IMG/VR virus record: IMGVR_UViG_3300021956_000014
DNA length: 64,000 nt
Direction: 5' to 3' (one strand)
From: a virus
Both the position numbers and the translations under genes were made by a program. Positions within the stretch are counted from its first letter, which is position 1; every line of letters begins with the position of its first letter. Positions 134 to 50,802 of the stretch are shown here, piece after piece. The notes under the pieces are model-generated. The model did not search any database, was not told the DNA's origin, and worked only from the letters and a program-made list of their open reading frames with translations.

Positions 134-571
134 TTAGGCCTTTAGGCTTGCACGTAACATCCAACCGTGTTTACGATGTGCATCCATGCGTTCTGCAAGG
201 AAATTACTGAAGCCATGCTCACCTGCTTGTTCAGCTAGGTCATAGGCCATTTTTAATACAACGATCATCTTTTCGTTGTCTTCGTACAATGTGTGTAACA
301 TTAATCCAGGACTTAAAATGTCTGTGGTATCTTCAATTTCGGACAACATGCTAAAGCGGGTGTATGAGCCAGGCATGTAACTACCAATGGCACGAATCTT
401 TTCTGCAAAGTCATCAATGCTACCATATACTTCTTCGTAGATCATGCCAAACAGTTGGTGATGTTCTAAAAAGTCATGTCCTTCTACATTCCAATGAAAG
501 TTGTGTGCTTTTAAATAAAAGCTAAATTCACTGGCGAATGCTACCTTTGCGGCTTCTGCTAATGTTGTCAT
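134..571 (-). CDS. dps: Dps-like ferritin-fold DNA-binding/iron-storage protein
   Basis: 145 aa; ferritin-like Dps pattern (HWNVEG..F..H...E, conserved His/Asp/Glu ferroxidase-type residues), length typical of Dps. Confidence 0.7.
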   Translation of the reverse strand: MTTLAEAAKVAFASEFSFYLKAHNFHWNVEGHDFLEHHQLFGMIYEEVYGSIDDFAEKIRAIGSYMPGSYTRFSMLSEIEDTTDILSPGLMLHTLYEDNEKMIVVLKMAYDLAEQAGEHGFSNFLAERMDAHRKHGWMLRASLKA

Positions 572-8447: not shown

Positions 8448-9167
8448 TTAGGTGACAACCACTGGATGAATATTTAATATACAGCCCGGATGTATTAGCT
8501 CTAAAAAGGTTGTGACTTTTTCGTCGTTGGCGTAAAACCAAATATTCCAAAAACCATCAAATTTTGAACTTAGCATTCGTTTGACACCCCCAGACACCTT
8601 GACTTCGTCTGTACCAAGTCCTTCTAAGTAGTTGAGCATCTGCTGTTTAGTAATAACATTACATCGCCCGTCACGCAATACAACCTTGTATTTGTAGGAA
8701 AAGTTTTTTTTGCGTATAATTACTCCGCTCTTAAGCAGGTTTTGTGTCTGCTGGTTGGCAGGACCGGATATGCCCAGGACAATGTGTCGGTATTTTGGGC
8801 CCAGCTGATCAACGATTGTTTTTAATTCGTTTTCAGTTTCGGCATAGAACTGTATTTCGGGTTCTTCAACACGAATCTTTACATTTGGATTATTGTCTTT
8901 TACAGCACGAATAACATGTAGAAGAGCCACATCAATCTTATCTAGGTTATGTGTGGATGCTCTGCCCCAATAGCCACCGGGATTAATCTGCCTAAAGTGG
9001 CGCCTTGCTGTAATAGCGGTTTCGTAGTCGGTGCTTTCCTGTACAATTCGGCCACCATAGACTTCTAGCCTCATACGGTACAGGTATTTTCCAAAAAATT
9101 GTTTTGTAGTCTCTTCGAATTTAACCGAATAATTTTTACTTTTCCAGTACGATATATCCATGCTCAT
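8448..9167 (-). CDS. hypothetical protein
   Basis: 239 aa ORF immediately downstream of clpA, 32-nt overlap. Confidence 0.45.
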   Translation of the reverse strand: MSMDISYWKSKNYSVKFEETTKQFFGKYLYRMRLEVYGGRIVQESTDYETAITARRHFRQINPGGYWGRASTHNLDKIDVALLHVIRAVKDNNPNVKIRVEEPEIQFYAETENELKTIVDQLGPKYRHIVLGISGPANQQTQNLLKSGVIIRKKNFSYKYKVVLRDGRCNVITKQQMLNYLEGLGTDEVKVSGGVKRMLSSKFDGFWNIWFYANDEKVTTFLELIHPGCILNIHPVVVT

Positions 9168-11415
9168 CTACAGTAGGGGGTGCTTCAATGCTAATGCGAC
9201 TGTCAAACGTAAATTCTGTTCCTGTCCAGTCAACAGTAATTGAACTATTAGGAGGTACACGCTCAAACAATATCTTTTTACTTAGCGGAACCTTAATTAA
9301 ATCGTTGATTTTACGACCCAGCGGCCTTGCGCCCATTTTGCTATCATAGCCAACTTCAGCTAAATGATCAACTGCGGCTTCAGTTAGTCTAATCTTAATA
9401 GATTTTTCACTTAGCAATTCGTTAACTTCGTTAATAAACTTGGCAACAACCTTCTTAATACTCAATTGATCGAGTTTATTAAATTTACAAATGCCATCTA
9501 GGCGGTTACGGAACTCAGGTCTGAAAAATTCCTTAACAGCCTTGTCGTCTTCACCAGTTTTTTCCTGTGTACCGAAGCCAATACTGTTGCGCTCGTTGTC
9601 GGCCGCTCCCAGGTTACTGGTTAGGATAATAATGGCATTACGTGCATCAGCTTTTTTGCCATTGCTGGATGTAACAGTACCTTCATCCATTAGCTGTAAC
9701 AAGACATTGCTGACATCTGGGTGTGCTTTTTCAATTTCGTCAAACAAGATAACAGCATTACTGTTCTTTTCTAAATCACTGATTAGTAATCCGCCACCAA
9801 GATTGCTGTCTTCGTAGCCTACATACCCCGGGGGCGCACCAATCAGCTTACTAGCTGAGTGCTTTTCTTGGTATTCACTCATATCATAACGTAATAGTTT
9901 CATCCCAAGGTTTTCGGCTAATAGTTTAGCCAATTCAGTTTTACCTGTACCAGTTGGTCCTAGGAACAAGAAACTGCCAATTGGCTTGTTAATACCTTTA
10001 AGTCCGGCACGACTAACATAGATGCGCTCAAGGATAGTATCAACAACTTGTTCTTGTCCATACAACTTAGCTTTAATGTTACCTTCTAGGTTGTCCAGAC
10101 TGCGTACAGTTTCAGCACCAATTTGATCTGCGGGTATTTTAGTAAACTTGCTCAGTGTATCAATGATATGGCTCTTGTTAACCACCCAATCTTTTTCTAC
10201 TAGTTTAGTTCTAGCACATGCGCTGTCAATTAAATCAATGGCCTTGTCGGGTAAACGCTTGTCTGTTTGATATCGTACACTGAGATCAACAGCACTATCA
10301 ATCGCTGAATCATCAATGACGCCGCCGTGAAACTCTTCAAAGTAGCCACGTAGGCCACGCAAAATGTCTTTGGCCACAGAAGGTGTTGGTTCTTCTACCG
10401 GTAGCCTATGGAAACGGCGCATTAGCGCACGATCCTTTTCAAAACTCTGTGTGTATTCTTCCCAAGTAGTTGATGCAATGACTTTAATCTGACCTTTGCT
10501 GAGTGCAGGTTTGATCATATTGCTAAAGTCCACACTACTTTGACTACCTGATCCGGCGCCCTGCATTTGATGTGCTTCATCAATGAACAAGATACACTTG
10601 CCACGTGCTATTAATGCTTCAATTACATCCTTGACCTTTTCTTCAAACTCACCGCGATATTTACTGCCTGCTAGGATACTACCAATGTCTAAGTTAAACA
10701 CAGTATAATCTAACAAATACTCAGGAACTTCTTTATTAAAGATATTTCTGGCCAGCCCCTCAGCAATGGCGGTCTTACCTACACCCGGATCGCCTACTAA
10801 CAAGATATTGCTTTTGTTGCGTTTGGCCAATACTTGTGCAATTTCATTAATTTCAAACTCTCGACCAATTACGGGATCGATGTTGCCTGCGGCGGCCGAC
10901 TCGCTAAGATTAGTACAATACTCGTCAAGGATATCGTGTCCTCGCATTTTCCTTGCGGCTCTAGCCTGTTTGGCTTCTTGATAGTTTTCGTTATAGAACT
11001 CAATTAGTTTTTGTCTATCAAGTCCGTACTTGAGCATGAAGTATGCGGCGTGGCTGTTAGTTTCGTTTGTGATACTCAAGAAGATATCAATAACTTGAAT
11101 GTGTGTACGCCCACTAAACAATACTTGAGTAAATGCACGATTAAACATACGCTCAAGAGCATGTGTTTTCTTTGGTTCACAACCATTTTCTTTGCTGACT
11201 AGATAAGTCTGCGACATTAAAAATGTGTGCAATTCAATGACCATGCTGTCAACATCAGCGCCAAAATTCTGGCAAAGCTCGTAAAATGGTTTATACAACA
11301 TAACCGCTTTGAGCAAGTGCTCTAAAGTCACATACTCGTGGTTAAGCTCTTTAGCTGACTTAATAGCCGAACTAACAATTACTTCAATTTCGGGATTTGG
11401 TTGTATAGTCATCAT
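9136..11415 (-). CDS. clpA: ClpA-type AAA+ unfoldase (ATP-dependent Clp protease ATP-binding subunit)
   Basis: 759 aa; Clp N-domain; two Walker A boxes (GDPGVGKTAIAEGLA, GPTGTGKTELAKLLA); KLIGAPPGYVGY; ERNSIGFG aligning with the ClpA IGL ClpP-docking loop; no ClpB middle domain. Confidence 0.9.
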   Translation of the reverse strand: MMTIQPNPEIEVIVSSAIKSAKELNHEYVTLEHLLKAVMLYKPFYELCQNFGADVDSMVIELHTFLMSQTYLVSKENGCEPKKTHALERMFNRAFTQVLFSGRTHIQVIDIFLSITNETNSHAAYFMLKYGLDRQKLIEFYNENYQEAKQARAARKMRGHDILDEYCTNLSESAAAGNIDPVIGREFEINEIAQVLAKRNKSNILLVGDPGVGKTAIAEGLARNIFNKEVPEYLLDYTVFNLDIGSILAGSKYRGEFEEKVKDVIEALIARGKCILFIDEAHQMQGAGSGSQSSVDFSNMIKPALSKGQIKVIASTTWEEYTQSFEKDRALMRRFHRLPVEEPTPSVAKDILRGLRGYFEEFHGGVIDDSAIDSAVDLSVRYQTDKRLPDKAIDLIDSACARTKLVEKDWVVNKSHIIDTLSKFTKIPADQIGAETVRSLDNLEGNIKAKLYGQEQVVDTILERIYVSRAGLKGINKPIGSFLFLGPTGTGKTELAKLLAENLGMKLLRYDMSEYQEKHSASKLIGAPPGYVGYEDSNLGGGLLISDLEKNSNAVILFDEIEKAHPDVSNVLLQLMDEGTVTSSNGKKADARNAIIILTSNLGAADNERNSIGFGTQEKTGEDDKAVKEFFRPEFRNRLDGICKFNKLDQLSIKKVVAKFINEVNELLSEKSIKIRLTEAAVDHLAEVGYDSKMGARPLGRKINDLIKVPLSKKILFERVPPNSSITVDWTGTEFTFDSRISIEAPPTVDEHGYIVLEK

Positions 11416-11479: not shown

Positions 11480-12334
11480 TTATTGGTTAGATTGGATTTG
11501 ACGTATTAATTCTAACTGCTGTTCAGTTAAGTGTTTAGGTACACTGACTGCGATTTCAACTAACAAGTTACCGCGAACGTTATGATTCAAATGATATAGG
11601 CCTTCGCCACGCACACGCATCATGGTTCCGGGTTGTGTACCGGGTGGTACTTGCAATTCAAACATTCGACCATCTAGTCCTGTAATTTCTGTAACGCCAC
11701 CAGTGATTGCGTCAAGACAATTTATAGAGACTTTAGAGATTAAGTCAACTCCGTCTATTCTAAATCTATGGTCTGGAGTAACATTAAAAACAATATACAA
11801 ATCACCGCGAGGTAATGTGTTGAACATATTGTCCCCTAGACCTGGATACTTTATCTGTGCTCCTGCGTGTATTCCTCTTGGTACAGTTACTTCTACAGTT
11901 TCTCTATGTCCTGTTGTTGTTTGTACACTTAATGTTTTCTTTTGTTCTTGTAGTGTTTCTGCTAACGGCATTACAACTTCAACTCTAAGATCTTTGTTTT
12001 TTCTAGGATGACGCTGTCCAAAAGGACTGCCATGACCAAATGGGCCTCCAGGAAAACCAAAGCCTCTAAGAATGTCTTCCATACCCGGCGGCATTTGGTC
12101 GAAGTCGTTACCGTTTACAGTAAAACGGAACCCACCAGGATTGCGACGTTCGTTGTCATACTGTGCTCGTTTGTTTGGGTCTTCTAGTACAGCGTATGCG
12201 GCCTGTATTTCTTGAAACTTCTGTGTGTCACCACCTTTGTCCGGGTGATGTTTGCTCGCGAGACTACGATATGCTTTTTTAATTTCGTCGGCCGTTGCAT
12301 TTTCGGCAACACCTAGTGTAGCATAATGAGTCAT
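11480..12334 (-). CDS. DnaJ/CbpA-type J-domain co-chaperone
   Basis: 284 aa; N-terminal J domain (YATLGV...KKAYRSLASKHHPDKGGD, HPD motif), no Cys-rich zinc finger, C-terminal DnaJ_C-like domains: CbpA-like architecture. Confidence 0.8.
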   Translation of the reverse strand: MTHYATLGVAENATADEIKKAYRSLASKHHPDKGGDTQKFQEIQAAYAVLEDPNKRAQYDNERRNPGGFRFTVNGNDFDQMPPGMEDILRGFGFPGGPFGHGSPFGQRHPRKNKDLRVEVVMPLAETLQEQKKTLSVQTTTGHRETVEVTVPRGIHAGAQIKYPGLGDNMFNTLPRGDLYIVFNVTPDHRFRIDGVDLISKVSINCLDAITGGVTEITGLDGRMFELQVPPGTQPGTMMRVRGEGLYHLNHNVRGNLLVEIAVSVPKHLTEQQLELIRQIQSNQ

Positions 12335-18668: not shown

Positions 18669-19279
18669 TATTCGTCTGACGGTATTGATATACCCAACAG
18701 TCTTGCTAGTTGACGATTTGTGTTGGCGATTTGAGTTGGGTAGTTTAACATAGCCCCGGTTATACCATCATTTTGTTTTTTAATAATCTCTGCCATAGTC
18801 CTAAGATTTTTATAGTAGAGAGCATAGTCGGGGTAGGTAATATCAAAGTGCCCACATTTAACCCACCAACCTAAACAGCTATCGTTGTCTCTATATACTA
18901 ACACCACAGGACATTCGGGCCATAGTTCTTTCAAATAATCTATGTTGTCTCGATAGCTAAAAATATGACTTTTAATAATTCGAACACCATTGCCATTGAA
19001 TGGTCTGTCAAATAATTCCTCTGCCTGTTTTCTAGTCAAAGTCGACATACTTTCGGGTAAGTCGAATTCCATGCCCGGGTCAAAGTACGCACCTAAGTGC
19101 ATTAAATCCATAGTACCACCGGCATCGTGGTAATAGGTTCTAGCATCACTGTAGTCACTGCGATCAATGTCGGAGCTATAGTAAATGTTTTTAACAACCG
19201 AGCTCCACTTAGATCCTGGTGCACCAGCTACAAAAATGTATTTCATTCTGGTTTGATCCTTTTGGCAATGGGTTGCCAA
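18620..19279 (-). CDS. P-loop-like protein, possible sulfotransferase/kinase fold
   Basis: 219 aa; KYIFVAGAPGSKWSS resembling a 5'-PSB/P-loop and VLVYRDNDSCLGWW resembling a sulfotransferase 3'-PB (RDxxxS) element; weak. Confidence 0.3.
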   Translation of the reverse strand: MATHCQKDQTRMKYIFVAGAPGSKWSSVVKNIYYSSDIDRSDYSDARTYYHDAGGTMDLMHLGAYFDPGMEFDLPESMSTLTRKQAEELFDRPFNGNGVRIIKSHIFSYRDNIDYLKELWPECPVVLVYRDNDSCLGWWVKCGHFDITYPDYALYYKNLRTMAEIIKKQNDGITGAMLNYPTQIANTNRQLARLLGISIPSDEYWQNYGVSDVRVEVIC

Positions 19280-20199
19280 GTTTGTTGCAATCTCATCATT
19301 GAGGCACGCACACCAGCTGGAGTGTGCTCATCGGGTGTGGTGTACATCATGTTTTCACGAAACTTTTCTGCCGCTTCAGCTGAGCGTATAGCGGGTACAA
19401 AACGGTCAGCATACCATTTTTGTATGTCTTGTGGCGTGCCTGGCGGTAATACTATGTTCCAACATCCGTGTATGCTAAGTCCGGGGGCGGCCTTGCTCAT
19501 TAGCGGCGCAGATTCTAATCCTGGTAAAGGCTTTGTGTCGGCAATACCAATTAGTTTTAATTTGCCGGTTAACACATGCGGATAACCCACGGCCACTGGA
19601 GTAACTCCAAATTCTACATGCCCGCCCATAACATCTAGTAACGCTTGTGCTGGTCCTTTGTACATAACGGTTTCAACCCGGTCCCCTCCGGGTACTCGTA
19701 GTTTATCCACTAGATATTCTACTGCTAATCTATGCCCACCGCCACCGATGGCAAATGTTACAGACCGTTCCTTTTTACGAATGGCCGCAATTAATTCATC
19801 GGGGGTATTGATTGTGCTCTTAGGATTTGCCCAAAATGCCAGCGGGCTTCTAGCAATATTAGCTACAGGTTCTAGGTCCATGGGATTATATTTTACCATG
19901 TTACTGTACCATATTTCGGGTGTGACCCAGTTGCTTTGACAAGCGGGTACACTTATGGTATGTCCATCTGCAGGCATAGTTACAAAGTGATTAAGAGCGA
20001 TGTTGCCATCTGCACCCGGACGATATTCGGGATTGAATTTGGCTCCAGTCTCACGCTCTACTATACTGGCTACAATGCGAAACGATATTTCGTTTCCTGC
20101 TCCGGGACCATTGGGAAATATAACGGTCACTGGCCGTGTGGGTTGCCACGCAAAAGCCAAAGCGGGAAGTAATGCCAGCAGGGCGAGAAGTTTTTTCAT
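19243..20199 (-). CDS. TctC/Bug-family periplasmic solute-binding protein (tripartite tricarboxylate transporter receptor)
   Basis: 318 aa; signal peptide MKKLLALLALLPALAFA; EYRPGADGNIA, FAIGGGGHRLAVEYL, LLDVMGGHVEFGV matching the Bug-domain pattern. Confidence 0.65.
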   Translation of the reverse strand: MKKLLALLALLPALAFAWQPTRPVTVIFPNGPGAGNEISFRIVASIVERETGAKFNPEYRPGADGNIALNHFVTMPADGHTISVPACQSNWVTPEIWYSNMVKYNPMDLEPVANIARSPLAFWANPKSTINTPDELIAAIRKKERSVTFAIGGGGHRLAVEYLVDKLRVPGGDRVETVMYKGPAQALLDVMGGHVEFGVTPVAVGYPHVLTGKLKLIGIADTKPLPGLESAPLMSKAAPGLSIHGCWNIVLPPGTPQDIQKWYADRFVPAIRSAEAAEKFRENMMYTTPDEHTPAGVRASMMRLQQTWQPIAKRIKPE

Positions 20200-21003: not shown

Positions 21004-21924
21004 TTACTTAACTTCTATGCCTTTGGTATAATATTCAAATCGTTTAGAAGTATCTGCATACCACTTAGTAAGATCTCCTGGGTTCGACATATACGCTTCC
21101 TTGCTGGCAAAATCGGTGCGATACAAAGTTTGCACAGCTTCAGCTTTCTCGGCCTTTAAGAAAATTTGTTGCAATTCATCAACCGTTGCTTGTGGTGTAT
21201 CTTTAGGAACATAAAAAGCAAAAATACCTTGCAGTTCTATCAAGTCACTGTAACCTTGCGAAGCCAGTGTAGGAATACCTAAGAATGAGGTTTTACCAGT
21301 TAAACCAATCAATGTTGTGTCCGGCATTGCTTTAGCCTTGGCATCACCTAAGAATTCAAATGTTGCATCTGTATGCCCACCCATCACACTTAAGAAGGCT
21401 TCATTAGTGCTGGCAAAGTGAACCATTTGGACATCCTTAGTAGGATATTTTTTCTTGATATCTCTGGCTAGAGCCTCTAACATTAAATGAATGGTTGATC
21501 CTGTGCCTGCGGTGGCAAAATTAATTCGATCTTGCTTGATCAATTGGTCTAATGTTTTACCTTTGGTGATCAATGCGGCTGGGCTAATAGCCATAACCAT
21601 TACAGGTTTAAACTCCGACAACTTAAAAGTTGACTCTGGATACAAGTAAGGTCGAATAAACTGTGCCGTGCTGTTAGCATATACAACAGGACCATTTTTA
21701 TATGCTAGTGCATAACGTGCGGCAATAGATCCCCCGGCACCTGGACGGTTTTCAAAGATGAATTCATATTTGGATTGATTCTTATTTGCTTCTTCAAGGA
21801 TAGCTCGTATGTAAGTTCCTTGAGTGCTAGTAGGAATCCACCCCCAAATTGCTGGTGTTTTGATTGTTTGAGCTTGCGCTACAAAACTCGCGGCGGCAAA
21901 TAAAAGCGCCAATAGCTTTTTCAT
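21004..21924 (-). CDS. TctC/Bug-family periplasmic solute-binding protein, second copy
   Basis: 306 aa; signal peptide MKKLLALLFAAASFVAQA; ENRPGAGGSIAA, ATAGTGSTIHLMLEALA, SVMGGHTDATFE (Bug-domain pattern); RBS AAGGAAAA. Confidence 0.7.
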   Translation of the reverse strand: MKKLLALLFAAASFVAQAQTIKTPAIWGWIPTSTQGTYIRAILEEANKNQSKYEFIFENRPGAGGSIAARYALAYKNGPVVYANSTAQFIRPYLYPESTFKLSEFKPVMVMAISPAALITKGKTLDQLIKQDRINFATAGTGSTIHLMLEALARDIKKKYPTKDVQMVHFASTNEAFLSVMGGHTDATFEFLGDAKAKAMPDTTLIGLTGKTSFLGIPTLASQGYSDLIELQGIFAFYVPKDTPQATVDELQQIFLKAEKAEAVQTLYRTDFASKEAYMSNPGDLTKWYADTSKRFEYYTKGIEVK

Positions 21925-28474: not shown

Positions 28475-29659
28475 TTACCTCCAATACTGCTTGAATTCTG
28501 GAACCACTTCCAGTACGCTTTCGTTTCTAAGTTGATCTAATTTATCGGTAAACCGACAGGTTTCGTGCCACGAACCAATTGGTGCCTCTGACATGTAACT
28601 GATAATACCATCCGCTCTTGTTTGTTGTTCTTTGTAACGACTGCAAGACAGTAATCGTTGACCAGCTAGATCTTTTAATTCCTGTGGTAAGTTTTTAATG
28701 TTTAACTGTGCTGGAAAATGGCAAACAGTCAAGTCAATGGGATCGAATGTGTTTCCATTGGCGTAGGCAAAATCCAGCATCTTGTCAAGGTACAGTACAT
28801 TGTAAACGCTGACCACACAATTGAACTTGATCTTTACTCCGGGAAATTGTCGGACTGTTTCGATGTTGCGTAATAGCAAGCTCCAGTCTAAACCCGAGCG
28901 TATGTATTCTCCCAGTTGTTCCGTAGCATCTACACTGACAATGAACAACACATTGGAAAAATGCTGTAAGTAATCTTCTAGTCGGTGCTGACCAAACTGT
29001 AGCTTGGTCAGGTTGGTTGTGTAGGTTAGGCGTATGTCTGTTAGTCCCAACTCTATTAGGCGATCCAATAACTCCCAGTGTTCTTGCTGGAATAAACTTT
29101 CGCCGCCGGCAAAGTAAACTTCTTTTAGTTGACTGAGATCTCCATAGCGCAACATATCAACTTGTTCGTTGAGTGCATGGATAACATAGTTGGTCCGTGG
29201 CTCGCGGTTATAGACTGCTACAGAGTCTGTACCCCAACTATGGCTATAGTCTGGACCGCACATACGACATTTTAAGTTACAGATGTTTGAAAAACGAATG
29301 TCCCAATACTGTAGTGCAAAGTCTTGTAAATAACCGTCGGCTGAAGTTTTGGCCAACAGTCCGTCGACATCAATATTTAAATGATCTATGTCTTGATTTT
29401 TAGCAGTACGGAAACTAGGAAGTCCGTGGGACTCTTCTTTATAACAACCTGCACAGGCCCGCGGCTGGTTACCGGCTAACATTTCTGTACGCACACGGCG
29501 CATGGCCTCTGTGTTTGCTACAGAGCCAGCATCGGTAAAGTCTTGTATGTTACCAAAGTTGCCTTGAGCCGCACAGCAAGGTTTTATTTTGCCCGTTGGA
29601 TCATGGAAGAAATGTATCCAAGGTAAAATACAAAACGTCTTACTGGGCAGGTTGCTCAT
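28475..29659 (-). CDS. radical SAM protein with extra N- and C-terminal Cys clusters
   Basis: 394 aa; CNLKCRMCGP (CxxxCxxC); additional N-terminal Cys cluster (residues 10, 28, 29, 68, 71) and C-terminal Cys residues; 1-nt gap to the cupin gene. Confidence 0.6.
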   Translation of the reverse strand: MSNLPSKTFCILPWIHFFHDPTGKIKPCCAAQGNFGNIQDFTDAGSVANTEAMRRVRTEMLAGNQPRACAGCYKEESHGLPSFRTAKNQDIDHLNIDVDGLLAKTSADGYLQDFALQYWDIRFSNICNLKCRMCGPDYSHSWGTDSVAVYNREPRTNYVIHALNEQVDMLRYGDLSQLKEVYFAGGESLFQQEHWELLDRLIELGLTDIRLTYTTNLTKLQFGQHRLEDYLQHFSNVLFIVSVDATEQLGEYIRSGLDWSLLLRNIETVRQFPGVKIKFNCVVSVYNVLYLDKMLDFAYANGNTFDPIDLTVCHFPAQLNIKNLPQELKDLAGQRLLSCSRYKEQQTRADGIISYMSEAPIGSWHETCRFTDKLDQLRNESVLEVVPEFKQYWR

Positions 29660-41319: not shown

Positions 41320-42168
41320 TTATGTTAATCCTAATCTCCATTTTGTATTCAAATACTGCTCAACAGCCGTTTGCTCCGACGGAGTTAATGCTCGAGTCCA
41401 GATCATAATTTCGCCAATGTAACCATCCATGTACTGCCCAGTAAATGTTGGATTAACTGCCGAACCTCTATTGTCGCCACCAAAGAACCAATAGCTTGGT
41501 GTGCCGGTGGTTGTACCAACTGTGCCAGTAAACGTCAATGCTTTTTCGTACAAGTCGTAGATAAATGTCAATTTACCTGCGTTGGTGCTTTGTGTGCCAT
41601 CGTATACTAGACCGTATATATGGAACTTGCTAGTATCGTCTGTGAGTGATACGGTACCGTAATTGCTAACCGAATGTCCAACGGTCCAATTTGATCCATT
41701 CCACCAAATGCCAAAGTTAGTATCTGTAACCACCAAGGGAAACAAAGTACCGGGCAAGCTAGTAGGACGAGCAACAATATAAACTGTAAGTCCCGACAAG
41801 TTTTGTGACCACGATGTTGGGTTAATGTCGAGATTATTACCACTGGCGCTAGAGTACAATACTGCGCCAAGGCCTTGTTGTACAGGTATAGCATACGTGG
41901 GTTGCTTGCCAGTACCACCGTTGACGTTAGCAGGATGTCCTGCACCGGACAAGTCAGACCATGATGATATGGTAGTACCATTGGTTACTGCCCCGGAAAA
42001 GTTATTGATGCTAACACCGTTGACCACTGTGGCACTTGCAGAAGCATTGTACCACAGATTTAAGCTAGGAACACTCGATGGCCGCACATCGCCGTATTGG
42101 CCAGCGGCACCCATACATGGCATGATAATACCTGACATTATGCTAGTCCCACACCCGACACAAACCAA
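41320..42168 (-). CDS. structural protein (fibre-associated)
   Basis: 282 aa, Thr/Gly/Asn-rich, 31-nt overlap with the upstream fibre gene. Confidence 0.4.
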   Translation of the reverse strand: MVCVGCGTSIMSGIIMPCMGAAGQYGDVRPSSVPSLNLWYNASASATVVNGVSINNFSGAVTNGTTISSWSDLSGAGHPANVNGGTGKQPTYAIPVQQGLGAVLYSSASGNNLDINPTSWSQNLSGLTVYIVARPTSLPGTLFPLVVTDTNFGIWWNGSNWTVGHSVSNYGTVSLTDDTSKFHIYGLVYDGTQSTNAGKLTFIYDLYEKALTFTGTVGTTTGTPSYWFFGGDNRGSAVNPTFTGQYMDGYIGEIMIWTRALTPSEQTAVEQYLNTKWRLGLT

Positions 42169-45100
42169 GTATCTGTTGCTACTTTTTGCATCGTGGCCAT
42201 ACCATAGCTGGCTAACGTTCTAGTACTTGACGTTGAATTACCAGCCATGTACATAGTAACACCCACGCCAGGGGCTATTGTAATTGTGCCTGTGCCTTGA
42301 TTGATAATATTGATTGCCGCCCCGGTACTAAATGCCACAGATGCATTGTTAGCCACAGTCAATGTATAGTTAGTTGCAGATGTTGAGTAGTAGTGTTTGC
42401 CGGCATCACTGAGTGCAATAGTTGTGTTGCCTGTAAACGATATCTGTGGAATATCTCTGTAGCCAATGGCAAATCCATTGGTACTGCCCTGCACGTTACC
42501 GTATAATTGTGTTATACCACTTGCGTTGCCGATATAAGTCCCAATGGTAGCACCACCTGCTAGATAAACTGTAGTAGGTGTTGTATTAACAATATAGGCG
42601 GTTCCGGCACTAGTTCTGAAGTATCCGCCCTGTGCCCATACGTTACCTGTAGCCACAACACTACCAGCGACGTTAACGTTACCGTTAGCGGCACCAATGT
42701 TAACTGTCGTGGCCGCACCAGCAAAGTTTACAGTTGTGGCAGTTGTATTAACTAACGGGAATGTAGATTGGTTGGTAGTGACACCACCGCTGGCATTTAG
42801 TGCCAATGGAACATATGAAGTGAGTGCGGAAGTTGAAATAGACCCATATTGGCTCATTGTTGCTGAGCCATTGGCAGTAGTAGATGCCAGCAAGTTAAAG
42901 TATATTACACCACCTTGCAGAGTGATTTGAGAAACACCACCAGTTCTATATGCAATCGGGCTTCCGGCAGAGTTATAGTTAATGTTATAACTCAACGATG
43001 TAGCAGTACTCAACGGATCTGTTCTTAGCGAAGATACGCTACCTACTTGTAGTGTTGGAGCATTAGATGTATATAAAACAGGAACAGCATTACCAATAAC
43101 AATATTGTTAGATGTCGTTAGGTACGCAGTTACATTAGAATTACTGTATGTTGTACCACTGTTATACGTAGCATTGGCGTAGGTATAAAAACTGCCAATA
43201 TTGGCCTGTAATGTTGTGATGGTTGGATCGGTTGATAAGTAAGCCGCAACGTTGGTGTTGCTATAAGTTCCCGATCCACCTGTTACAGTAGATAGGATGT
43301 TTACACCGTTGGGGAACAAGAAGTTTGGAGAAATTACATTAGCTAATGTAGTAATGTTGCCTGCGGTGTATATACTGCCCGATACACCAATGCCACCTTT
43401 GACTGTTAATGCACCGGTGGCCGCGCTTGTACTATCTGTGGTGGTGGTAACAACAACGTTACCACTAGAATCAAGTTTGACATAAGGCACCGACGAAATT
43501 GCCCCAACAGGAGTCGCTTCTAATATCAGTGCAGTACCTTGTGCTGAATCTGTAAAGTTTTCAGTGGCTACAATGTACATGCCTGGAGCATCGCCTGTTG
43601 CGGTGTAACCAGTAGCACCATAACCTCTAAAGTAAATGGCACCGATTGTGTCGCCTGACTGTACTGCTGTTGGTGTTGCGTTAGTTCCTCTTGCATGACG
43701 ACCAAAGAAACTTGATACACCAGTGCCATACGAATCGGCTAAGAATGTGGCATTGTAGTTTACGCCGGCACTATAGTGTACACCAGCGCGACCAATAATT
43801 GGTGTATCTGTTACACCATAACCCAAAATTGTCAATACACTATCGCCCGACGCAGATACAGAGTTGGCTGTACCCAACACCAAGTTACCGCGAATATTGT
43901 GATAATTTGTTCCCGGTGTGGTACCTGCAATTAAATTACCAACAACAGTTAAGGCCTGTACATTACCTGAATAGGTTGGCAAGTACGAGGCCACATTGGC
44001 ATTGGCATAACTGCTAGTACCAAATGTTGTATTGGCATAAGTGTAGAAACCGCCGATGTTGGCATTAATACTGTTAATTGAGGTCTGTTGAGAAGCCGCA
44101 TTGGCGTTGGCACCGAGTATACTGTTATACAAGCCAGCTACGTTAGCATTGGCCCAAGTATAATAGCTACCAATGTTGGCCTGCAATGTTTGCACTACAG
44201 TATTGGCACCAGTGATCTGACTCAGTTGAGTTGCGGCATTTGCAGTCCATGCAGTAGTAATAGCACTATCTTGTGCATCAACATAGGCCTTCATTGCTGT
44301 GTTGGCTGTAACAATAGCCGCATTAGCACCAGCAATCTGGTTTGCTTGTGCGCCAGCATTTGCAGTCCATGCAGTAGTAATAGCACTATCTTGTGCATCA
44401 ACATAGGCCTTCATTGCTGTGTTGGCTGTAACAATGGCAGTATTAGCTCCTGTTACGTTTGCGTTAATAGCATCTATAGTAACACTGGTGATGGCACCAA
44501 CTTGCAACGGGTCATATACAGCATTAGTGAAATCTATAGTATTACCGGGTTCAGGAGCAATGTTGCTAAACAATTTCCATTGTCCAGTGGTGGCTTGACG
44601 TACTAAACCAGTATGCTGATATGTGCCATTGTTAAAATGTCCAGCAAAACCAATGTCTAAACTGTTGGCTGGATTGGCATTGGCAACATAAATGATGTTG
44701 TCGTTAATTACCAACGTATTAGCACTGACTGTAGTTGTTGTACCATTAACAATCAAGTTGCCACCAACTGTTAGGTTACCGCTGGTAGTTAAACTGCCAA
44801 TTGTGCTAGTAGACAAATAAGTGTTAACATTGGTGTTGGAGTATACTTGTCCTTGTAGGGTGGTTATTAAGCCTTGCTGAGTTGCCGCGTTAGCTGTCCA
44901 TGCAGTAGTTACCGCATCAACGTAGCCTTTCATTGCTGTGTTGGCTGTAACAATGGCCGCATTGGCGCCAGCAATAGCATCAGCCTGCACACCAGCATTA
45001 CTTTGTAGTGTATCAATTAAGCCTTGCTGAGTTGCCGCGTTAGCTGTCCATGCTGTAGTAATAGCACTATCTTGTGCATCAACATAGCTCTTCATTGCTG

Positions 45101-45527
45101 TGTTAGCACTGATAATCTGATCAGACTGTGTGGCCGCATTAGCTGTCCAGGCCGCAGTAACGGCCGCATCTTGGCTATCTACATAAACTTGACTAGCACC
45201 ACTTGTTGATGCAAATTTTGTGTCAACATAAGTGGTTGTTGCATAACTAGAGTCGTTAGTGAATAAGCTAATATTCGATCCAGTTATGGCCGCATCAACT
45301 AAAGAATCTAATTCGCCCGAACTTACTGCACCGGTAATGTCGTCTACAGTCAGTACAATATTTCCGGTACGACCAGCTACTGCGGTAACGGGTGCGTTAA
45401 CTGTAATATCTACTTCCCCTGTGGAGATTTTGTAGAAGTTTTGATTAATTTTGTTAAATGCCGTGCGTAGCGGATCACCTGCGTGATCTCCGGCTCTGTT
45501 GCCAATGTTTACATTACTAAAGCTCAT
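42138..45527 (-). CDS. giant tail fibre with tandem internal repeats
   Basis: 1129 aa; N-terminal NIGNRAGDHAGDPLRTAFNKINQNF motif; at least four copies of TANTAMKAYVDAQDSAITTAWTANA. Confidence 0.65.
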   Translation of the reverse strand: MSFSNVNIGNRAGDHAGDPLRTAFNKINQNFYKISTGEVDITVNAPVTAVAGRTGNIVLTVDDITGAVSSGELDSLVDAAITGSNISLFTNDSSYATTTYVDTKFASTSGASQVYVDSQDAAVTAAWTANAATQSDQIISANTAMKSYVDAQDSAITTAWTANAATQQGLIDTLQSNAGVQADAIAGANAAIVTANTAMKGYVDAVTTAWTANAATQQGLITTLQGQVYSNTNVNTYLSTSTIGSLTTSGNLTVGGNLIVNGTTTTVSANTLVINDNIIYVANANPANSLDIGFAGHFNNGTYQHTGLVRQATTGQWKLFSNIAPEPGNTIDFTNAVYDPLQVGAITSVTIDAINANVTGANTAIVTANTAMKAYVDAQDSAITTAWTANAGAQANQIAGANAAIVTANTAMKAYVDAQDSAITTAWTANAATQLSQITGANTVVQTLQANIGSYYTWANANVAGLYNSILGANANAASQQTSINSINANIGGFYTYANTTFGTSSYANANVASYLPTYSGNVQALTVVGNLIAGTTPGTNYHNIRGNLVLGTANSVSASGDSVLTILGYGVTDTPIIGRAGVHYSAGVNYNATFLADSYGTGVSSFFGRHARGTNATPTAVQSGDTIGAIYFRGYGATGYTATGDAPGMYIVATENFTDSAQGTALILEATPVGAISSVPYVKLDSSGNVVVTTTTDSTSAATGALTVKGGIGVSGSIYTAGNITTLANVISPNFLFPNGVNILSTVTGGSGTYSNTNVAAYLSTDPTITTLQANIGSFYTYANATYNSGTTYSNSNVTAYLTTSNNIVIGNAVPVLYTSNAPTLQVGSVSSLRTDPLSTATSLSYNINYNSAGSPIAYRTGGVSQITLQGGVIYFNLLASTTANGSATMSQYGSISTSALTSYVPLALNASGGVTTNQSTFPLVNTTATTVNFAGAATTVNIGAANGNVNVAGSVVATGNVWAQGGYFRTSAGTAYIVNTTPTTVYLAGGATIGTYIGNASGITQLYGNVQGSTNGFAIGYRDIPQISFTGNTTIALSDAGKHYYSTSATNYTLTVANNASVAFSTGAAINIINQGTGTITIAPGVGVTMYMAGNSTSSTRTLASYGMATMQKVATDTWFVSGVGLA
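44237..44436 (-). repeat. tandem coding repeat (80-nt identical core, 120-nt period) inside the giant fibre gene
   Basis: Identical 80-mer at 44237-44316 and 44357-44436; diverged copies near 44880-44950 and 45030-45110. Confidence 0.8.
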
Positions 45528-45591: not shown

Positions 45592-45918
45592 TTAGGCAGG
45601 GCTAAAACTGCTTCCGCAACCACAAGTTGTTTGTGCGTTGGGATTTTCAATTGAAAAACTAGACCCCATGAGGTCTTCTTTGTAGTTGATTTTGGCTCCC
45701 TGCAGGTATTGACTGCTCATTGAGTCTACCAGCAGGTGTACGCCATCGAGTTCTAGATCAAAATCATCTTCGTTGACCATTTCGTCAAACGTAAATCCAT
45801 ATTGCATACCCGAACACCCACCCCCTTGCACAAATATGCGTAGTTTAATATTGGGGTTGTTTTCTTCGGCAATTAAATCGCGTACCTTGTCTGCGGCCGC
45901 TTCGCTTAGTGTAATCAT
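45592..45918 (-). CDS. iscA: A-type Fe-S cluster carrier (IscA/ErpA/HesB family)
   Basis: 108 aa; aligns with E. coli IscA: GGGCSG ... C-terminal TCGCGSSF (the three conserved Cys). Confidence 0.85.
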
Positions 45919-46466
45919 TCTGATCCTGATAGTCTGTGGTTAACGACGTTCCAATCTATGATTCGCCATAGATTGTCTAGATATTTGCCTTTGTTTGATC
46001 CATAATCGTTGACCCAGGCGTGTTCCCACCAGTCAACAAGTAAAGCAATATCTGTACGTTTAGCATGGTTGCTGATTGTTTTGATAACGCCAGACTTATT
46101 CAAATAAATCCAATTGCTACCTTGCAGTTTCATGGCTTGGTCTTTGAATTCTTTTTTAAACGCATCAAAAGATCCAAACTTTCTAGTGATCAAGCTGTCG
46201 ATGGTTCCTGTGGGCTTGTTGCCAGTGCGCGGTGCACGGAATTGTGTAAACCAAATACGGTGTAAGAAAGCACCAGCTTCGTTAAACGTGCGGTCACCTT
46301 CTTTGTTGTTGTAACGGTCAACATAAGATTTGTAAAGTTTACCATAGTGCAGGTCCACAGTAGTCTTACTAGTCACTGGACTTAACGCACCTGCGCTGTA
46401 GGGCAGTTTAACCTGCTCTAGATCTTGGTCGCTTTTTGCTTCAATTAAGTCAATTATGTCACGCAT
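45915..46466 (-). CDS. sod: Fe/Mn superoxide dismutase homologue
   Basis: 183 aa; aligns along full length with E. coli SodB (LPY..AL.P..S..T...[19 protein letters not shown]); all four metal ligands present (His in LHYGK, His in FLHRIW, Asp+His in DWWEH); second-sphere HH of the HHxKHH motif replaced (LY). Confidence 0.7.
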
Positions 46467-46473
46467 GTAGTAT

Positions 46474-46692
46474 TTATTTGTTTCTATATACTACTCGCCC
46501 GCGAGTTAAATCGTAAGGGCTCATTTCTACTTCGACGCTGTCACCTAGCAATATGCGTATATTATTTTGACGCAGTCTGCCGCTAATGGTGGCAGTGATG
46601 GTATGGTTTTCGTTAATCTTAACTCTAAACATAGCATTGGGCAATACATCTTCTACTTTGCCCTCGAGACGAATTAGATCTTCTTTAGCCAT
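46474..46692 (-). CDS. infA: translation initiation factor IF-1
   Basis: 72 aa; near-colinear with bacterial IF-1 (MAKED.I...G.V...LPN.MFRV...N.H...A.ISG..R.N.IRIL.GD.V.VE.SPYDL..GR.V.R). Confidence 0.9.
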
Positions 46693-47341
46693 GATACTTC
46701 AACATGATTCCATGCCTTTCTTTCAATTTTAAAAACTCCTCTGCTGAAAATCCTATGCTTAATTGCACCCTACTGTGCTCTATACCCACTACAGCGTGAA
46801 TAACTTTTCCAAATATTGCAGTCCACGACTTTTCGGGAATTACTGTAGACTTGATTAGTGTTAAGTTTTCCCCTTCGGGAAACTGTAAAGCAGGACCTTC
46901 CCTAATTAGGTCATAATTTTGTTCTTGAAACCATTGGGTCATTACCTCGGGTCCGCCCGCATCTATCAAATAATTTAATATGTATCGTCTTGGTCCACCA
47001 TCAGAGTGCGGGGTGAATGCTTGTCCTGCAAACATTAACTGACTACCCACTTGCCCAAATTCTCCAATGTTTTCTTTGACCCATTCAGCCACACGGTCTG
47101 GTAAGTTATATCTGCGATAAGTGGCACGTTTATATGTATGGCCATTCAAATGAAATTCTTTTGTACTCTTAAATTTTTTCAACAGCTCAGGAGACAATTC
47201 TCCGGTCTTAGGATCGTAGGTTGGTCTAGTTACAAATTGAATATCATTACCGAGATGTATTGATTTTCTTACTTCGTTAACTACCCACTTAGGAGGTTCG
47301 GGTAAATCACACAAACAATAAAAATCTAAATCATCCACCAT
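46685..47341 (-). CDS. putative 2OG-Fe(II) oxygenase
   Basis: 218 aa; FTPHSDGG (HxD) and downstream His ([13 protein letters not shown]) consistent with the facial triad. Confidence 0.4.
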
Positions 47342-47342
47342 A

Positions 47343-47750
47343 TTATCTACGCATATTACTTATGGCCACAGCGTCTTCTTGTGCAAATACCGGCACAGCA
47401 TTAGATTTGTGCATAGTAGCAATGCCCAGGACTTTGGTGCCAGTATACACTTTAGCTGGAGCAAGAGTAGCAGTACCACCAGTGTCTCTGCTAGGGATAT
47501 CTTTAGTAGTTGCACGACCTGGGGGTGGGGCCAACTTATAGGTCAGTGTTTCGGCCTTCATAGCACGACGACGTTTTTTGTCGTCAGCTTCAACTGCCCA
47601 TTTCTTTTGCAGTTCTTTCCAGCTGGCATCAAGCTCACGTGCCTTGCGAGCTTCTTCGGCATTGCGGAATTTGACCCGGCCTTTCTTTTTACCGTTAAGG
47701 CTAAGGCTGGGGTGATGTAGGTGCATGGTCATGATTGCAGTTTCTCCCAA
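47343..47750 (-). CDS. basic hypothetical protein
   Basis: 135 aa, Lys/Arg-rich. Confidence 0.4.
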   Translation of the reverse strand: MGETAIMTMHLHHPSLSLNGKKKGRVKFRNAEEARKARELDASWKELQKKWAVEADDKKRRRAMKAETLTYKLAPPPGRATTKDIPSRDTGGTATLAPAKVYTGTKVLGIATMHKSNAVPVFAQEDAVAISNMRR

Positions 47751-47959: not shown

Positions 47960-47975
47960 GCTTTATTATAGCAAA

Positions 47976-48302
47976 TTAGCCTTTTTTAGTCAAATCCGCA
48001 ACTGCTTTTTTTAGCGTCTCTGCGTAATTTAGGGCTTGCTGTTGAGTCATAATAATAGTGGATTCGTACTCAATATACCCTCGGGTCAAAAGTGTCCAAA
48101 TGGTCCGCCAACGGCTTTGTTCCCACCATTTTGATTTTTGCTGTGTGTAGGTAGTAACAATGACTCTTTCTGTGTCGTCTGCTTCAATCCATACATTATG
48201 ATCGTGGTTGCTGTCACCACATTCGCAGACTACTTGATAAGTTACCGTATCACCCCAATCATTGCGTTTTAGAATACCTTCTGCTGGTTTTTCTGCTTTC
48301 AT
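47976..48302 (-). CDS. hypothetical protein
   Basis: 108 aa ORF. Confidence 0.4.
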   Translation of the reverse strand: MKAEKPAEGILKRNDWGDTVTYQVVCECGDSNHDHNVWIEADDTERVIVTTYTQQKSKWWEQSRWRTIWTLLTRGYIEYESTIIMTQQQALNYAETLKKAVADLTKKG

Positions 48303-49532: not shown

Positions 49533-49807
49533 TATGTGTTCTTTAGTATATCCATTACACTACCAATTTTAAACTCCATTTGAGTTTCTGTCAAATGTTT
49601 TGGTTGGAAATGAACATGTTCTCTGAGATGGAATGTGGCAAAAACATCAAATCCGCCCCACAAGTCTTTCCATTTTTCGGGATTGTGATAAGTTTTGGTT
49701 CCGTCGACTATAAGGAAATATTCATCCTCTCGCAGTTCAACGGTCAATTTTACTCGCATAGGAGCAACTCGTTTTTGCACAACATCAACAAATGGTATTT
49801 CAATCAC
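49532..49807 (-). CDS. hypothetical small protein
   Basis: 91 aa ORF. Confidence 0.4.
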   Translation of the reverse strand: MIEIPFVDVVQKRVAPMRVKLTVELREDEYFLIVDGTKTYHNPEKWKDLWGGFDVFATFHLREHVHFQPKHLTETQMEFKIGSVMDILKNT

Positions 49808-50802
49808 TTTAAATTGGGGTTTACTTCAATTACAATTTTACCAGTCACTGATCTAGTAGAGGCAAACTTCAGTGCTTCCACAGCATCGTCGAGGCTATAT
49901 CTAGCAGTGATGTTGGGTTTAATTTTTCCGTTCTTGACCCAATTTAGCAGTATGCCCAAATTGGTCATGGCTTCTTGTCCTCGCTTCTGAGACCAAATAC
50001 CAGTGTAAACACCAATTATACTACGTTCTTTCAATAACGCCAAATTTAATGGTATATTTGGTATATCACCGGCCGCAAAACCAATTACCAAATAGCGTCC
50101 TCTAAATCCCAAACTACGCATAGCTGGTTCTGCGTACTTGTCGCCTACCGGATCAAATACTACATCAACACCTTCGCCGAGAGTTTGATTGACAATAAAT
50201 TTTCGCAGATCTTCTTCGTCGTAGTTAATAACTTGGTCTTCTCTGAGGTTAAATGTTTTTCTACAGTAGTCTAGTTTTTCTTCAGTGCTACAGGCCACTA
50301 GTATTTTAGCTTTCATAGCCTGTGCAATTTCAATGGCCGCACTACCGGTGCCGCCCGAACCACCAAGGATTAATACAGTTTCGCCTTCTTGTAGCTGTGC
50401 CATGTCTTTGAGGGCATGTAGAGAAGTGGCATAAGCAGTACTCAGTGTAGATGCAACGTCTAATGCAACTTCATCGGGCAACGGTCTAACTCGGAACTGG
50501 TTAACAACAATTTGTTCTGCCATACCACCGGTACCGGAACTGACTATAACTCGATCACCAGCTTTTACAGTAGTAACACCGGGACCTATACTTCTAACAA
50601 TACCTGAACATTCGTGCCCGGGTACAAATGGAAGTTTAGGTTTAACTTGATACAGTCCTTGCACAATTAATGTATCAGGAAAGTTAACAGCCGCATACGC
50701 AACATCAACCAACACTTCACCGCGGTTTAACTGAAGTGTAGGCCACGGACGAACACGCATGGTGTCCACTGGACCAAATTTGTGACAAACTAACGCTTTC
50801 AT
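49804..50802 (-). CDS. zinc-binding dehydrogenase / NADPH:quinone oxidoreductase (MDR superfamily)
   Basis: 332 aa; GroES-like N-domain (PGHECSGIV...GDRV), Rossmann motif ILGGSGGTGSAAIEIA. Confidence 0.8.
   Translation of the reverse strand: MKALVCHKFGPVDTMRVRPWPTLQLNRGEVLVDVAYAAVNFPDTLIVQGLYQVKPKLPFVPGHECSGIVRSIGPGVTTVKAGDRVIVSSGTGGMAEQIVVNQFRVRPLPDEVALDVASTLSTAYATSLHALKDMAQLQEGETVLILGGSGGTGSAAIEIAQAMKAKILVACSTEEKLDYCRKTFNLREDQVINYDEEDLRKFIVNQTLGEGVDVVFDPVGDKYAEPAMRSLGFRGRYLVIGFAAGDIPNIPLNLALLKERSIIGVYTGIWSQKRGQEAMTNLGILLNWVKNGKIKPNITARYSLDDAVEALKFASTRSVTGKIVIEVNPNLK

Follow-up and report, generated by a model that had tools for sequence, protein, structure and literature searches.

Why would a phage encode, side by side, a translation initiation factor, a superoxide dismutase (SOD) and an iron-sulfur (Fe-S) cluster carrier? 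The question is raised by three adjacent genes at positions 45,592–46,692 of a 64,000-nt stretch – ‘the window’ – of the virus record IMGVR_UViG_3300021956_000014: infA, encoding initiation factor IF-1, a gene for an Fe/Mn-SOD homologue, and an erpA-type gene for an A-type Fe-S carrier. We find that the trio is a conserved, tightly coupled block present across many related jumbo phages, a point that the preliminary description of this DNA had missed. Our proposal, to which we assign a probability of roughly 0.6, is that the three genes form an accessory operon, expressed together, whose products assist translation and shield Fe-S enzymes; we read the link of IF-1 to SOD and ErpA as one of common expression timing, not of a shared pathway. 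The proposal is built on the gene identities and their intactness, the SOD fold, residue conservation, purifying selection, conserved adjacency and the restriction of the SOD to phages, all of which are directly supported.

The trio consists of three uninterrupted open reading frames (ORFs) on the minus strand in the order infA, SOD, erpA, all with Pfam matches past the gathering cut-offs, and so the three assignable homologues of the preliminary description stand. The 72-amino-acid (aa) IF-1 (46474–46692, minus strand) matches Pfam eIF-1a/IF-1 at 1.6e-23 and the NCBIfam model TIGR00008; the 183-aa SOD homologue (45915–46466, minus strand) matches Sod_Fe_C at 4.1e-22 and Sod_Fe_N at 3.8e-09; and the 108-aa carrier (45592–45918, minus strand), of the ATC-I class, matches Fe-S_biosyn at 1.6e-20 and the NCBIfam model NF010147. 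As read from the sequence, infA and the SOD gene are separated by a 7-nt spacer (ATACTAC, 46467–46473, minus strand) that provides no Shine-Dalgarno (SD) motif before the SOD start, and the SOD and erpA genes overlap by 4 nt, ATGA. The region upstream of the SOD gene contains none of the motifs GGAG, GAGG and AGGA; erpA has AGGA at −9 to −6. All three genes are under purifying selection: the ratios of nonsynonymous to synonymous substitution rates (dN/dS), computed against the closest relative (locus L004 for infA), are 0.065 (infA), 0.049 (SOD) and 0.088 (erpA).

How widely is this arrangement kept? Anchoring the counts on the SOD in its 80 nearest loci, we find IF-1 encoded directly upstream in 43 of 78 loci and ErpA no more than 60 nt downstream in 23 of 80 (33 of 80 if up to 400 nt are allowed). 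The strict infA-SOD-erpA trio is present at 18/78 SOD loci, and both IF-1 and ErpA lie within 6 kb of the SOD at 30/78. Anchored on IF-1 instead, the SOD follows directly downstream in 43 of 59 loci and lies within 2.5 kb in 53 of 59; anchored on ErpA relatives of at least 70% identity, it is found within 2.5 kb in 26 of 33. Counts from such single-protein locus scans are lower bounds, as the scans find close relatives only. The junctions are similarly constant: infA-SOD spacers are typically 3–8 nt long, and the ATGA overlap of SOD and erpA is found in about 20 related loci. These tight junctions persist while the flanking genes turn over, which argues for co-expression. Furthermore, because the spacers are only 3–8 nt and the SOD gene is not preceded by an SD motif, we infer from the sequences that its translation is coupled to that of infA through termination-reinitiation.

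A competing explanation is that the adjacency is a mere inherited order within a variable island of host-derived accessory genes, with the three genes independent of one another. The trio loci all come from related phages with common flanks (an approximately 130-aa protein and tail fibres), as expected under this explanation; in other clades the SOD stands alone or beside UvdE, GP88 or Metallophos genes, none of 26 ErpA relatives at 50–59% identity has a SOD within 2.5 kb, and we found no gene fusions. However, inherited order does not readily account for 3–8-nt spacers and an ATGA overlap that are kept despite neighbour turnover (a 218-aa ORF has been inserted next to the block in the window), for a SOD gene without an SD motif of its own, or for the SOD lying within 2.5 kb in 90% of the IF-1-anchored loci, and we regard it as unlikely. 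The longer SOD family members P0241, P0245–P0248 and P0296, considered as possible SOD-ErpA fusions and thus as evidence of coupling, were rejected: their extensions are unrelated tails with no Fe-S_biosyn domain.

The phage IF-1 is a bona fide member of its family. It scores 106.3 bits against the infA equivalog model TIGR00008 (cut-off 61.15) and 82.5 bits against PF01176 (gathering cut-off 30.2), matches the solved IF-1 structure 4ql5 end to end (E = 1.2e-26) and aligns without gaps to E. coli IF-1 at 55.6% identity as a colinear, single OB-fold domain, bearing out its earlier description as a near-colinear 72-aa IF-1. The NxMFRV loop, [16 protein letters not shown], GR..YR and most of the basic residues are kept, and E. 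coli His35 and Tyr44 are substituted. IF-1 and the cold-shock proteins have the same OB fold, and RNA-chaperone activity has been reported for E. coli IF-1. Could the phage protein, then, act mainly outside initiation, as a cold-shock-type S1/OB-fold RNA chaperone or as a decoy against host translation or defence? The shared fold, the chaperone activity of the E. coli protein and the replacement of His35 and Tyr44 would be compatible with this, as would a weak RsgA_N match, which reflects the shared OB fold. Nevertheless, the protein passes the infA equivalog cut-off, is colinear over 72 aa at 56% identity, retains the NxMFRV loop along with most basic residues and is under strong purifying selection (dN/dS 0.065), and a primarily non-initiation role is therefore very improbable.

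A phage-borne infA had been considered rare in the preliminary description. In numbers this is so, as only 36 of 50,697 cultured-phage records are infA-positive, many of these resembling bacterial contigs; it is, however, no novelty, as the infA of huge phages has been published and read as a means of redirecting host translation (PMC7162821), a further report of phage infA exists (PMC11748809), and infA is annotated in Sinorhizobium phage Phosso. Many INPHARED ‘phage’ records that match infA, sodA/B, erpA, iscA, nfuA or clpA look like bacterial chromosomal contigs. The suspect records include OR844989–OR851455 (‘Staphylococcus phage SA 1306 Kay’, ‘Listeria phage LM 4-11-1’ and others), CAKLQF02/CAKLQH02 (‘Acinetobacter phage MD-2021a’), AFYI01 and AGRM01; some of them carry a Salmonella enterica label themselves. 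Such bacterial-looking records inflate the counts of phage-borne housekeeping genes.

The third gene had been labelled IscA. The assignment to the A-type carriers with all three Cys holds; the subtype does not, as the protein scores above the cut-off of the ErpA equivalog NF010147 (170.8 bits vs 117) and below those of both IscA models (TIGR02011, 86.7 vs 150.6; NF007049, 76.1 vs 181) and of SufA (81.7 vs 136.2). Its identity to E. coli ErpA is 58.9%, and it shares the three cluster-binding Cys (in GGGCSG and CGCGSSF) with 37 phage homologues. ErpA belongs to the ATC-I carriers, which face the apo-targets, are typical of Alpha-, Beta- and Gammaproteobacteria and are encoded apart from isc and suf (PMC2682760). 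Scans of the window detected no IscU, IscS or Suf family, and the phage erpA, standing away from isc/suf genes, thus has the genomic context of an ATC-I gene. In E. coli, ErpA is the sole A-type carrier essential in aerobiosis (PMC5040110), and viral A-type carriers are known and co-occur with viral radical-SAM genes (PMC5332604). Proximity of a SOD and an A-type carrier is also seen in some bacteria: at the Actinomyces loci L097, L100, L105 and L109 a HesB/IscA-type carrier is encoded on the opposite strand, ~1.3–1.6 kb from a canonical SOD gene.

The SOD homologue is the unusual one among the three proteins, in its residues but not in its predicted fold. Both SOD Pfam domains pass the gathering cut-offs, with the Sod_Fe_N match covering only positions 6–41 of the 82 profile positions. 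The preliminary description had proposed structure prediction as a check, and the SOD fold is supported by it: the AlphaFold2 (AF2) model has a mean predicted local distance difference test score (pLDDT) of 91.8, and Foldseek aligns it with more than 50 solved Fe/Mn SODs at template-modelling (TM) scores of 0.81–0.87, with root-mean-square deviations of 1.9–2.7 Å for Bacteroides fragilis SodFM2, Porphyromonas gingivalis SOD and E. coli SOD. The modelled protein has the two-domain Fe/Mn-SOD architecture, an N-terminal helical hairpin followed by a C-terminal alpha/beta domain. Preceding the canonical SOD start is a family-specific N-terminal helix (residues 1–16, low pLDDT), in which Arg2, Glu9 and Leu16 are invariant among 49 aligned members.

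An alignment of 67 distinct phage homologues, with E. coli SodB, Salmonella SodA and actinobacterial His-type SODs as references, shows what the family has kept and lost. The ligands His40, His69, Asp145 and His149, which by this alignment correspond to SodB His26, His73, Asp156 and His160, are invariant in all 67, so the claim that the protein keeps all four metal ligands is upheld; the equivalents of Tyr34, Trp122, Trp158 and Glu159 are likewise invariant, and both sets are also kept in the homologues from Pseudomonas phage PA5oct and Vibrio phage 2.275.O. The second sphere differs. It had been noted before that the histidines of the HHxKHH motif are replaced in this protein, and they are (HYGKLY, with Leu44 and Tyr45); the replacement is, however, no peculiarity of this gene but a fixed trait of the family, with HxxxHH giving way to HxxxL[Y/A] throughout. 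The His30 position is Leu in 67 of 67 members, the His31 position is Ala, Tyr or, once, His, and the position of the cross-dimer Tyr163 is aliphatic in nearly all. At the site of the N-terminal Gln69 of Fe-type SODs, 59 of the 67 members have Ala, five Ser and three Val. The family also differs in length: it lacks one residue right before the second ligand, about 20–25 residues of the N-terminal hairpin and 12 residues ahead of the last strand. The residue two positions before the Asp ligand is Leu, an Asn133-His134 pair is invariant, and, judging from the alignments, His134 is probably the residue that coordinates the metal-bound water. Gln75, six residues past the second His ligand, is invariant as well.

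Which class of SOD is this? A survey of the SodFM proteins across cellular life defines SodFM1–5 by second-sphere residues, which tune the preference for a metal, and does not mention phages or viruses (PMC10172142). By its sequence the phage SOD fits none of these definitions. It has no Gln four residues before the second His ligand, as SodFM2 would; it has no conserved Gln in the C-terminal loop, as SodFM1 and SodFM5 would, the column being Lys, Val or Ile with an invariant neighbouring His; and it has lost both of the trailing His residues of SodFM3 (HxxxHH) and SodFM4 (HxxxHx), although the C-terminal His is probable. Moreover, the SodFM3/SodFM4 proteins, mostly with a C-terminal His, are characterized as tetrameric with long N-terminal helices, whereas the phage hairpin is shorter even than that of dimeric SODs.

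The distribution of this subfamily sets it apart from cellular enzymes. At least 517 IMG/VR viral contigs encode a relative of the SOD; those listed are as long as 364 kb. A large protein database yields 1,439 protein clusters of relatives at E ≤ 1e-10, almost all metagenomic, and about 67 representatives at E ≤ 1e-30 (50% clustering) before the family grades into canonical SODs. Among the genomes of 185,579 bacterial and archaeal species, one genome per species, close relatives occur on two contigs only, both from metagenome-assembled genomes (MAGs), and no complete bacterial genome carries the subfamily: it is phage-restricted. The two MAG contigs, L090 (NZ_JBBAKG010000049.1, ‘Haliscomenobacter’), which holds homologues of the ~130-aa protein, infA, SOD, erpA and tail fibres, and L091 (JAPLPS010000046.1, a ‘Polaromonas’ MAG from Lac Pavin), which carries the phage block, are probably phage contigs binned into bacterial genomes; the two bins differ in phylum. 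Among cultured phages, the gene is carried by PA5oct-like Pseudomonas jumbo phages and by Vibrio phage 2.275.O (42% identity), where GenBank labels the protein ‘hypothetical’ or ‘sodB’. Some members and near relatives of the phage subfamily (P0245–P0248, P0296) bear Lys-rich or unknown tails of 80–460 residues, and the more distant P0245–P0248 keep the HxxxL and ‘NH’ signatures. P0313 (391 aa) joins an AhpC/TSA peroxiredoxin and a canonical Fe/Mn SOD in a single protein.

The same data dispose of the idea that the trio is bacterial DNA, be it through an assembly chimera, contamination or host genes flanking a prophage. All three are typical cellular genes, two close SOD relatives have been deposited in bacterial MAGs, and many of the ‘phage’ database matches look like bacterial contigs. 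But five metagenome contigs encode exactly this SOD protein, and the three of them that are listed, independent contigs each from a different sample, have an identical gene order. To this are added the SOD relatives on hundreds of viral contigs, their absence from complete bacterial genomes, and the fact that MAG contig L090 holds the very same phage block with tail-fibre homologues. The same-strand flanks of the trio are phage genes and its composition is that of the phage: the GC content of the three genes is 0.41–0.44, compared with 0.427 for the window, and thus none of them is a recent acquisition. We consider a bacterial origin of the locus effectively refuted.

A more serious question is whether the SOD-like protein is still a dismutase. 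Canonical SODs have His30, His31 and the cross-dimer Tyr163 in a hydrogen-bond network at the active-site funnel. The main rival to our proposal holds that the phage protein has changed function while keeping its metal site, and serves as a structural or regulatory subunit, perhaps bound to the virion or to the gene-expression machinery. The universal loss of His30, His31, the Tyr163 partner and the N-terminal Gln would be in keeping with this, as would the short hairpin, the family-specific N-terminal helix with its invariant Arg2, Glu9 and Leu16, and scores far below the SOD equivalog cut-offs. In purified particle preparations of PA5oct, mass spectrometry (MS) picked up the homologue as protein (PMC7318152); the MS set, though, includes acknowledged non-virion enzymes. 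The gene lies just upstream of tail-fibre genes, and the plastid RNA polymerase subunits PAP4/FSD3 and PAP9/FSD2 are among the PDB matches of the phage protein, which offers an analogy for recruitment at most. Genes for S21, IF-3 and ClpS lie near the SOD gene in PA5oct and the Vibrio phage, but are not in the window and are nearly absent from the 80 related loci. On the other side, the invariance of the ligands together with Tyr34, Trp122, Trp158 and Glu159 is the pattern of an active enzyme, and the neighbour in other clades is a damage-repair gene, UvdE. All in all, a changed function seems to us rather unlikely.

The UvdE UV-damage endonuclease (PF03851, 5e-35; cluster c6, ~342 aa) recurs beside the SOD in 22–23 loci, which belong to sister clades without infA and erpA (L033–L040, L043, L045–L048, L052, L058–L065 and others); this placement fits a damage-protection role and suggests a theme of photo-oxidative damage. 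The neighbours of the PA5oct SOD gene are ClpX, S21, hsp, ClpS and FtsH, and those of the Vibrio phage gene are IF-3, S21 and a ClpS-like gene. We had considered on this basis that the SOD belongs to a ‘translation/proteostasis module’ and rejected the idea: S21, IF-3, ClpS, ClpX and FtsH are not in the window, ClpS and hsp are each found at two of 80 loci, and UvdE takes the place beside the SOD elsewhere. In a bolder version of the changed-function theme, the phage proteins would be a sixth, virus-evolved branch of Fe/Mn SODs with a rewired proton relay (His30, His31 and Tyr163 lost, the invariant Asn-His pair and the conserved N-terminal helix gained, the hairpin shortened), whose function may be something other than bulk superoxide removal – for example, a particle-associated or translation-coupled sensor of redox state or metal, or an enzyme for another substrate or metal – with its synthesis mechanically tied to the translation of the phage IF-1. 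We hold this possibility to be doubtful.

Several observations weigh against the co-expressed operon that we favour. On the side of the locus, 20 of 78 SOD loci have neither IF-1 nor ErpA within 6 kb, genes may stay adjacent in related phages through shared ancestry, with no selection for co-expression, and no fusion of SOD with ErpA was found among the proteins searched. Promoter-like sites in the region are not above chance (eight found, 8.1 expected), and terminator predictions do not exceed the shuffled expectation. On the side of the enzyme, the SOD homologue falls far below all NCBIfam SOD equivalog cut-offs (92.8 vs 348), and the placement of Asn133-His134 relative to the C-terminal Gln/His site, and hence of His134 at the water site, is uncertain by 0–2 alignment positions, depending on the aligner. 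Finally, since His30, His31 and the cross-dimer Tyr163 are missing, catalysis by the phage SOD may be slow or altered.

With these reservations, we infer co-transcription, enzymatic activity, metal preference, ErpA clients and a benefit to the phage, and the operon would work as follows. The infA, SOD and erpA genes would be co-transcribed from a point upstream of the ~130-aa gene, and would be translationally coupled by way of the SD-less 7-nt spacer before the SOD gene and the ATGA overlap into erpA. The phage IF-1 would supply or supplement initiation factor 1 on the host 30S subunit during a long infection in which host expression declines. The SOD would remove superoxide, and ErpA would load apo-proteins with [4Fe-4S] clusters, the twitch radical-SAM enzyme of the phage itself being a plausible recipient; together, SOD and ErpA would protect and reload oxygen-labile Fe-S enzymes, and a conserved Dps-like ferroxidase, encoded away from the block, would keep free Fe(II) low.

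The genes on either side of the block are consistent with a phage setting. Immediately upstream of infA lies a 218-aa ORF (46685–47341, minus strand) of unknown function, which runs 8 nt into the start of infA; it has no Pfam, NCBIfam or PHROG match and, being confined to the closest relatives L001–L004, is a lineage-specific insertion in the transcription unit. Next comes the gene for the basic ~130-aa protein, likewise of unknown function (47343–47750, minus strand, probable start at 47729; phrog_27048, 3e-27), which is found with the block at 33 of the 81 related loci. Its family comprises at least 7,978 protein clusters at about 77–83% identity with many invariant residues, suggesting a core gene of an abundant phage group; it has no Pfam match and no PDB profile match, and its AF2 model is of low confidence (pLDDT 65; predicted TM score, pTM, 0.29). 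A TG-extended promoter-like site, TTGACT-17-TATAAT (47965–47993, minus strand; 11 of 12 matches), is a candidate start, as a lead only, of a transcription unit running through erpA. Downstream, 64 nt past erpA, is a gene for a repeat-rich, tail-fibre-like protein of 1,129 aa (42138–45527, minus strand), and no terminator-like site was seen between the two. Homologues of this protein come after erpA or SOD in 29 related loci, and the nearby ORF at 38951–40489 matches the tail-fibre family phrog_19602. The 1,129-aa protein contains near-identical internal repeats (TAWTANAATQ..., ANTAMKxYVDAQDSAITTAW...), and long shadow ORFs on the opposite strand of 42138–45527 reflect this repetitive composition.

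Does the window hold further genes for iron and redox metabolism? The preliminary description spoke of an unusually complete toolkit for handling reactive oxygen species and iron, in which it included a Dps at the start of the window and a quinone oxidoreductase of the medium-chain dehydrogenase/reductase (MDR) type. The Dps-like mini-ferritin is there: 145 aa (134–571, minus strand), ~45 kb from the trio, with a Pfam Ferritin match at 6.9e-18 and an intact ferroxidase tetrad (His51, His63, Asp78 and Glu82 in E. coli numbering) that is invariant in 54 phage homologues. It starts ~20 residues past the N-terminus of E. coli Dps, is without the Lys-rich DNA-binding tail and scores below the NCBIfam Dps cut-offs (33.8–45.5 bits vs 114–300). 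Its relatives occur on 332 viral contigs, and on one contig of 260 kb the Dps-like gene and the SOD block lie about as far apart as they do in the window; the gene is part of a wider iron and reactive-oxygen theme and is outside the operon. The stop of a gene for a 1,346-aa protein (568–4608, minus strand) overlaps the Dps-like start by 4 nt, and this tight coupling may be meaningful.

The second member fares less well. The protein encoded at 49804–50802 is an MDR oxidoreductase by its ADH_N and ADH_zinc_N domains, but it falls below the quinone-reductase cut-offs (PIG3 family, 216 vs 296.8 bits; PRK10754, 117 vs 348) and has no close relative in viral contigs. We therefore rejected it as a gene of a conserved toolkit: it is a lineage-specific passenger. 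The remaining relevant gene encodes a twitch-domain radical-SAM enzyme of 394 aa (28475–29659, minus strand; NF033640, 361.5 bits vs a cut-off of 170; phrog_14086), with homologues no more than 6 kb away from the SOD in L033, L046 and L060; it is plausibly a phage [4Fe-4S] client and a candidate target of the phage ErpA. Weak similarity of this enzyme to prokaryotic viperins was also seen (5.8e-08). Scans of the rest of the window detected no redox or iron genes beyond the radical-SAM enzyme, and with Dps conserved and the oxidoreductase not, the toolkit was overstated.

The phage itself is an uncultured jumbo phage. Relatives sit on viral contigs of 354–374 kb, lineage contigs thus reaching ~374 kb, and a megablast search of the region against the 50,697 phage records gave no match, so that the phage is none of the isolates described. 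Coding sequence makes up 93% of the window, and 85 of the 97 called ORFs are on the minus strand; no tRNA genes were found in it, and an Rfam scan returned no RNA family. An SD core is present at −20 to −5 in about half of the genes, against a background of 6%, with GGAG, GAGG or AGGA upstream of 39 of 79 window genes. The SD usage, the ErpA-type carrier and the TctC genes described below weakly hint at a proteobacterial host with SD-type initiation.

Gene families in the window include a ClpA/ClpB-like ATPase, DnaJ, PhoH, MazG, two TctC proteins, the radical-SAM enzyme, tail-fibre-like proteins and an ATP-dependent DNA ligase. The ClpA/ClpB-like AAA+ ATPase (9136–11415, minus strand; phrog_4871, 3e-239) is 40–44% identical to those of Phosso, Atu_ph07 and the PA5oct-group jumbo phages and adjoins the gene for DnaJ (J domain and DnaJ_C; 11480–12334, minus strand); the two make up a phage-borne chaperone pair, and related Clp genes are present in PA5oct and Phosso. 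The TctC-family (‘Bug’-like) solute-binding proteins of the tripartite tricarboxylate transporter receptor family are encoded at 19243–20199 and, as a second copy, at 21004–21924 (both minus strand). They are uncommon phage cargo and a possible host clue; the TctC family is expanded in Betaproteobacteria.

How does the block compare with known systems? With the huge phages that encode IF1 and IF3 (PMC7162821; the Lak megaphages; Phosso) it shares a full-length bacterial-type infA in a phage of more than 200 kb, the tblastn identity to the window IF-1 being 44–57%. The window infA, however, heads a conserved SOD-erpA block, whereas the neighbours of the Phosso infA are a Clp-family gene and MutT, and we found no SOD in Phosso or the Lak phages. 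PA5oct, MIJ3, Callisto and Vibrio phage 2.275.O._10N.286.54.E11, conversely, encode SODs of the same subfamily (182–189 aa, 42% identity), with HxxxLY, the Asn/Leu-His pair, the short hairpin and the aliphatic Tyr163 position, but have no infA or erpA alongside. The closest solved SODs, B. fragilis SodFM2 (8avl/8avm) and the cambialistic P. gingivalis enzyme (1qnn/1ues), are 34% identical to the phage SOD at TM scores of 0.81–0.84 and have the same two-domain fold and the same four ligands; unlike SodFM2, the phage protein has no N-terminal Gln and no trailing His, a shorter hairpin and the invariant Asn-His pair. The plastid proteins PAP4/FSD3 and PAP9/FSD2, in which an FeSOD fold has been recruited to the gene-expression machinery, appear among the sequence and fold matches of the phage SOD at 23–28% identity and may serve as a precedent for the rival reading only.

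Like E. coli ErpA, with 59% identity and the same three Cys, the phage carrier is encoded away from isc and suf. The co-occurrence with a radical-SAM gene is shared with the carriers of marine viromes (PMC5332604), but these belong to T4-like and other smaller viruses with no SOD linkage reported, whereas the window erpA is part of the proposed infA-SOD operon. Already known, then, are phage infA, viral A-type carriers and the annotation of SOD in a few phage records. The literature searched for phage Fe/Mn SODs returned only the Cu/Zn-type homologues of poxviruses and nothing on the PA5oct or MIJ3 sodB, and in it we found no description of the phage-restricted HxxxL[Y/A] SOD subfamily or of the conserved infA-SOD-erpA block.

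What does the block mean? From the viewpoint of metalloenzymes, the universal loss of His30 is the notable part: the phage lineage drops this residue and the Tyr partner, which are otherwise treated as near-universal, and it thus amounts to a natural experiment in the dispensability of the SOD second sphere and in metal preference. From the viewpoint of phage biology, the operon is a tidy and unsurprising accessory addition to a jumbo phage, and a compact, easily cloned set of three genes. To judge by the block, large phages living in oxic waters may put effort both into translation and into the upkeep of Fe-S enzymes, their own radical-SAM enzymes included.

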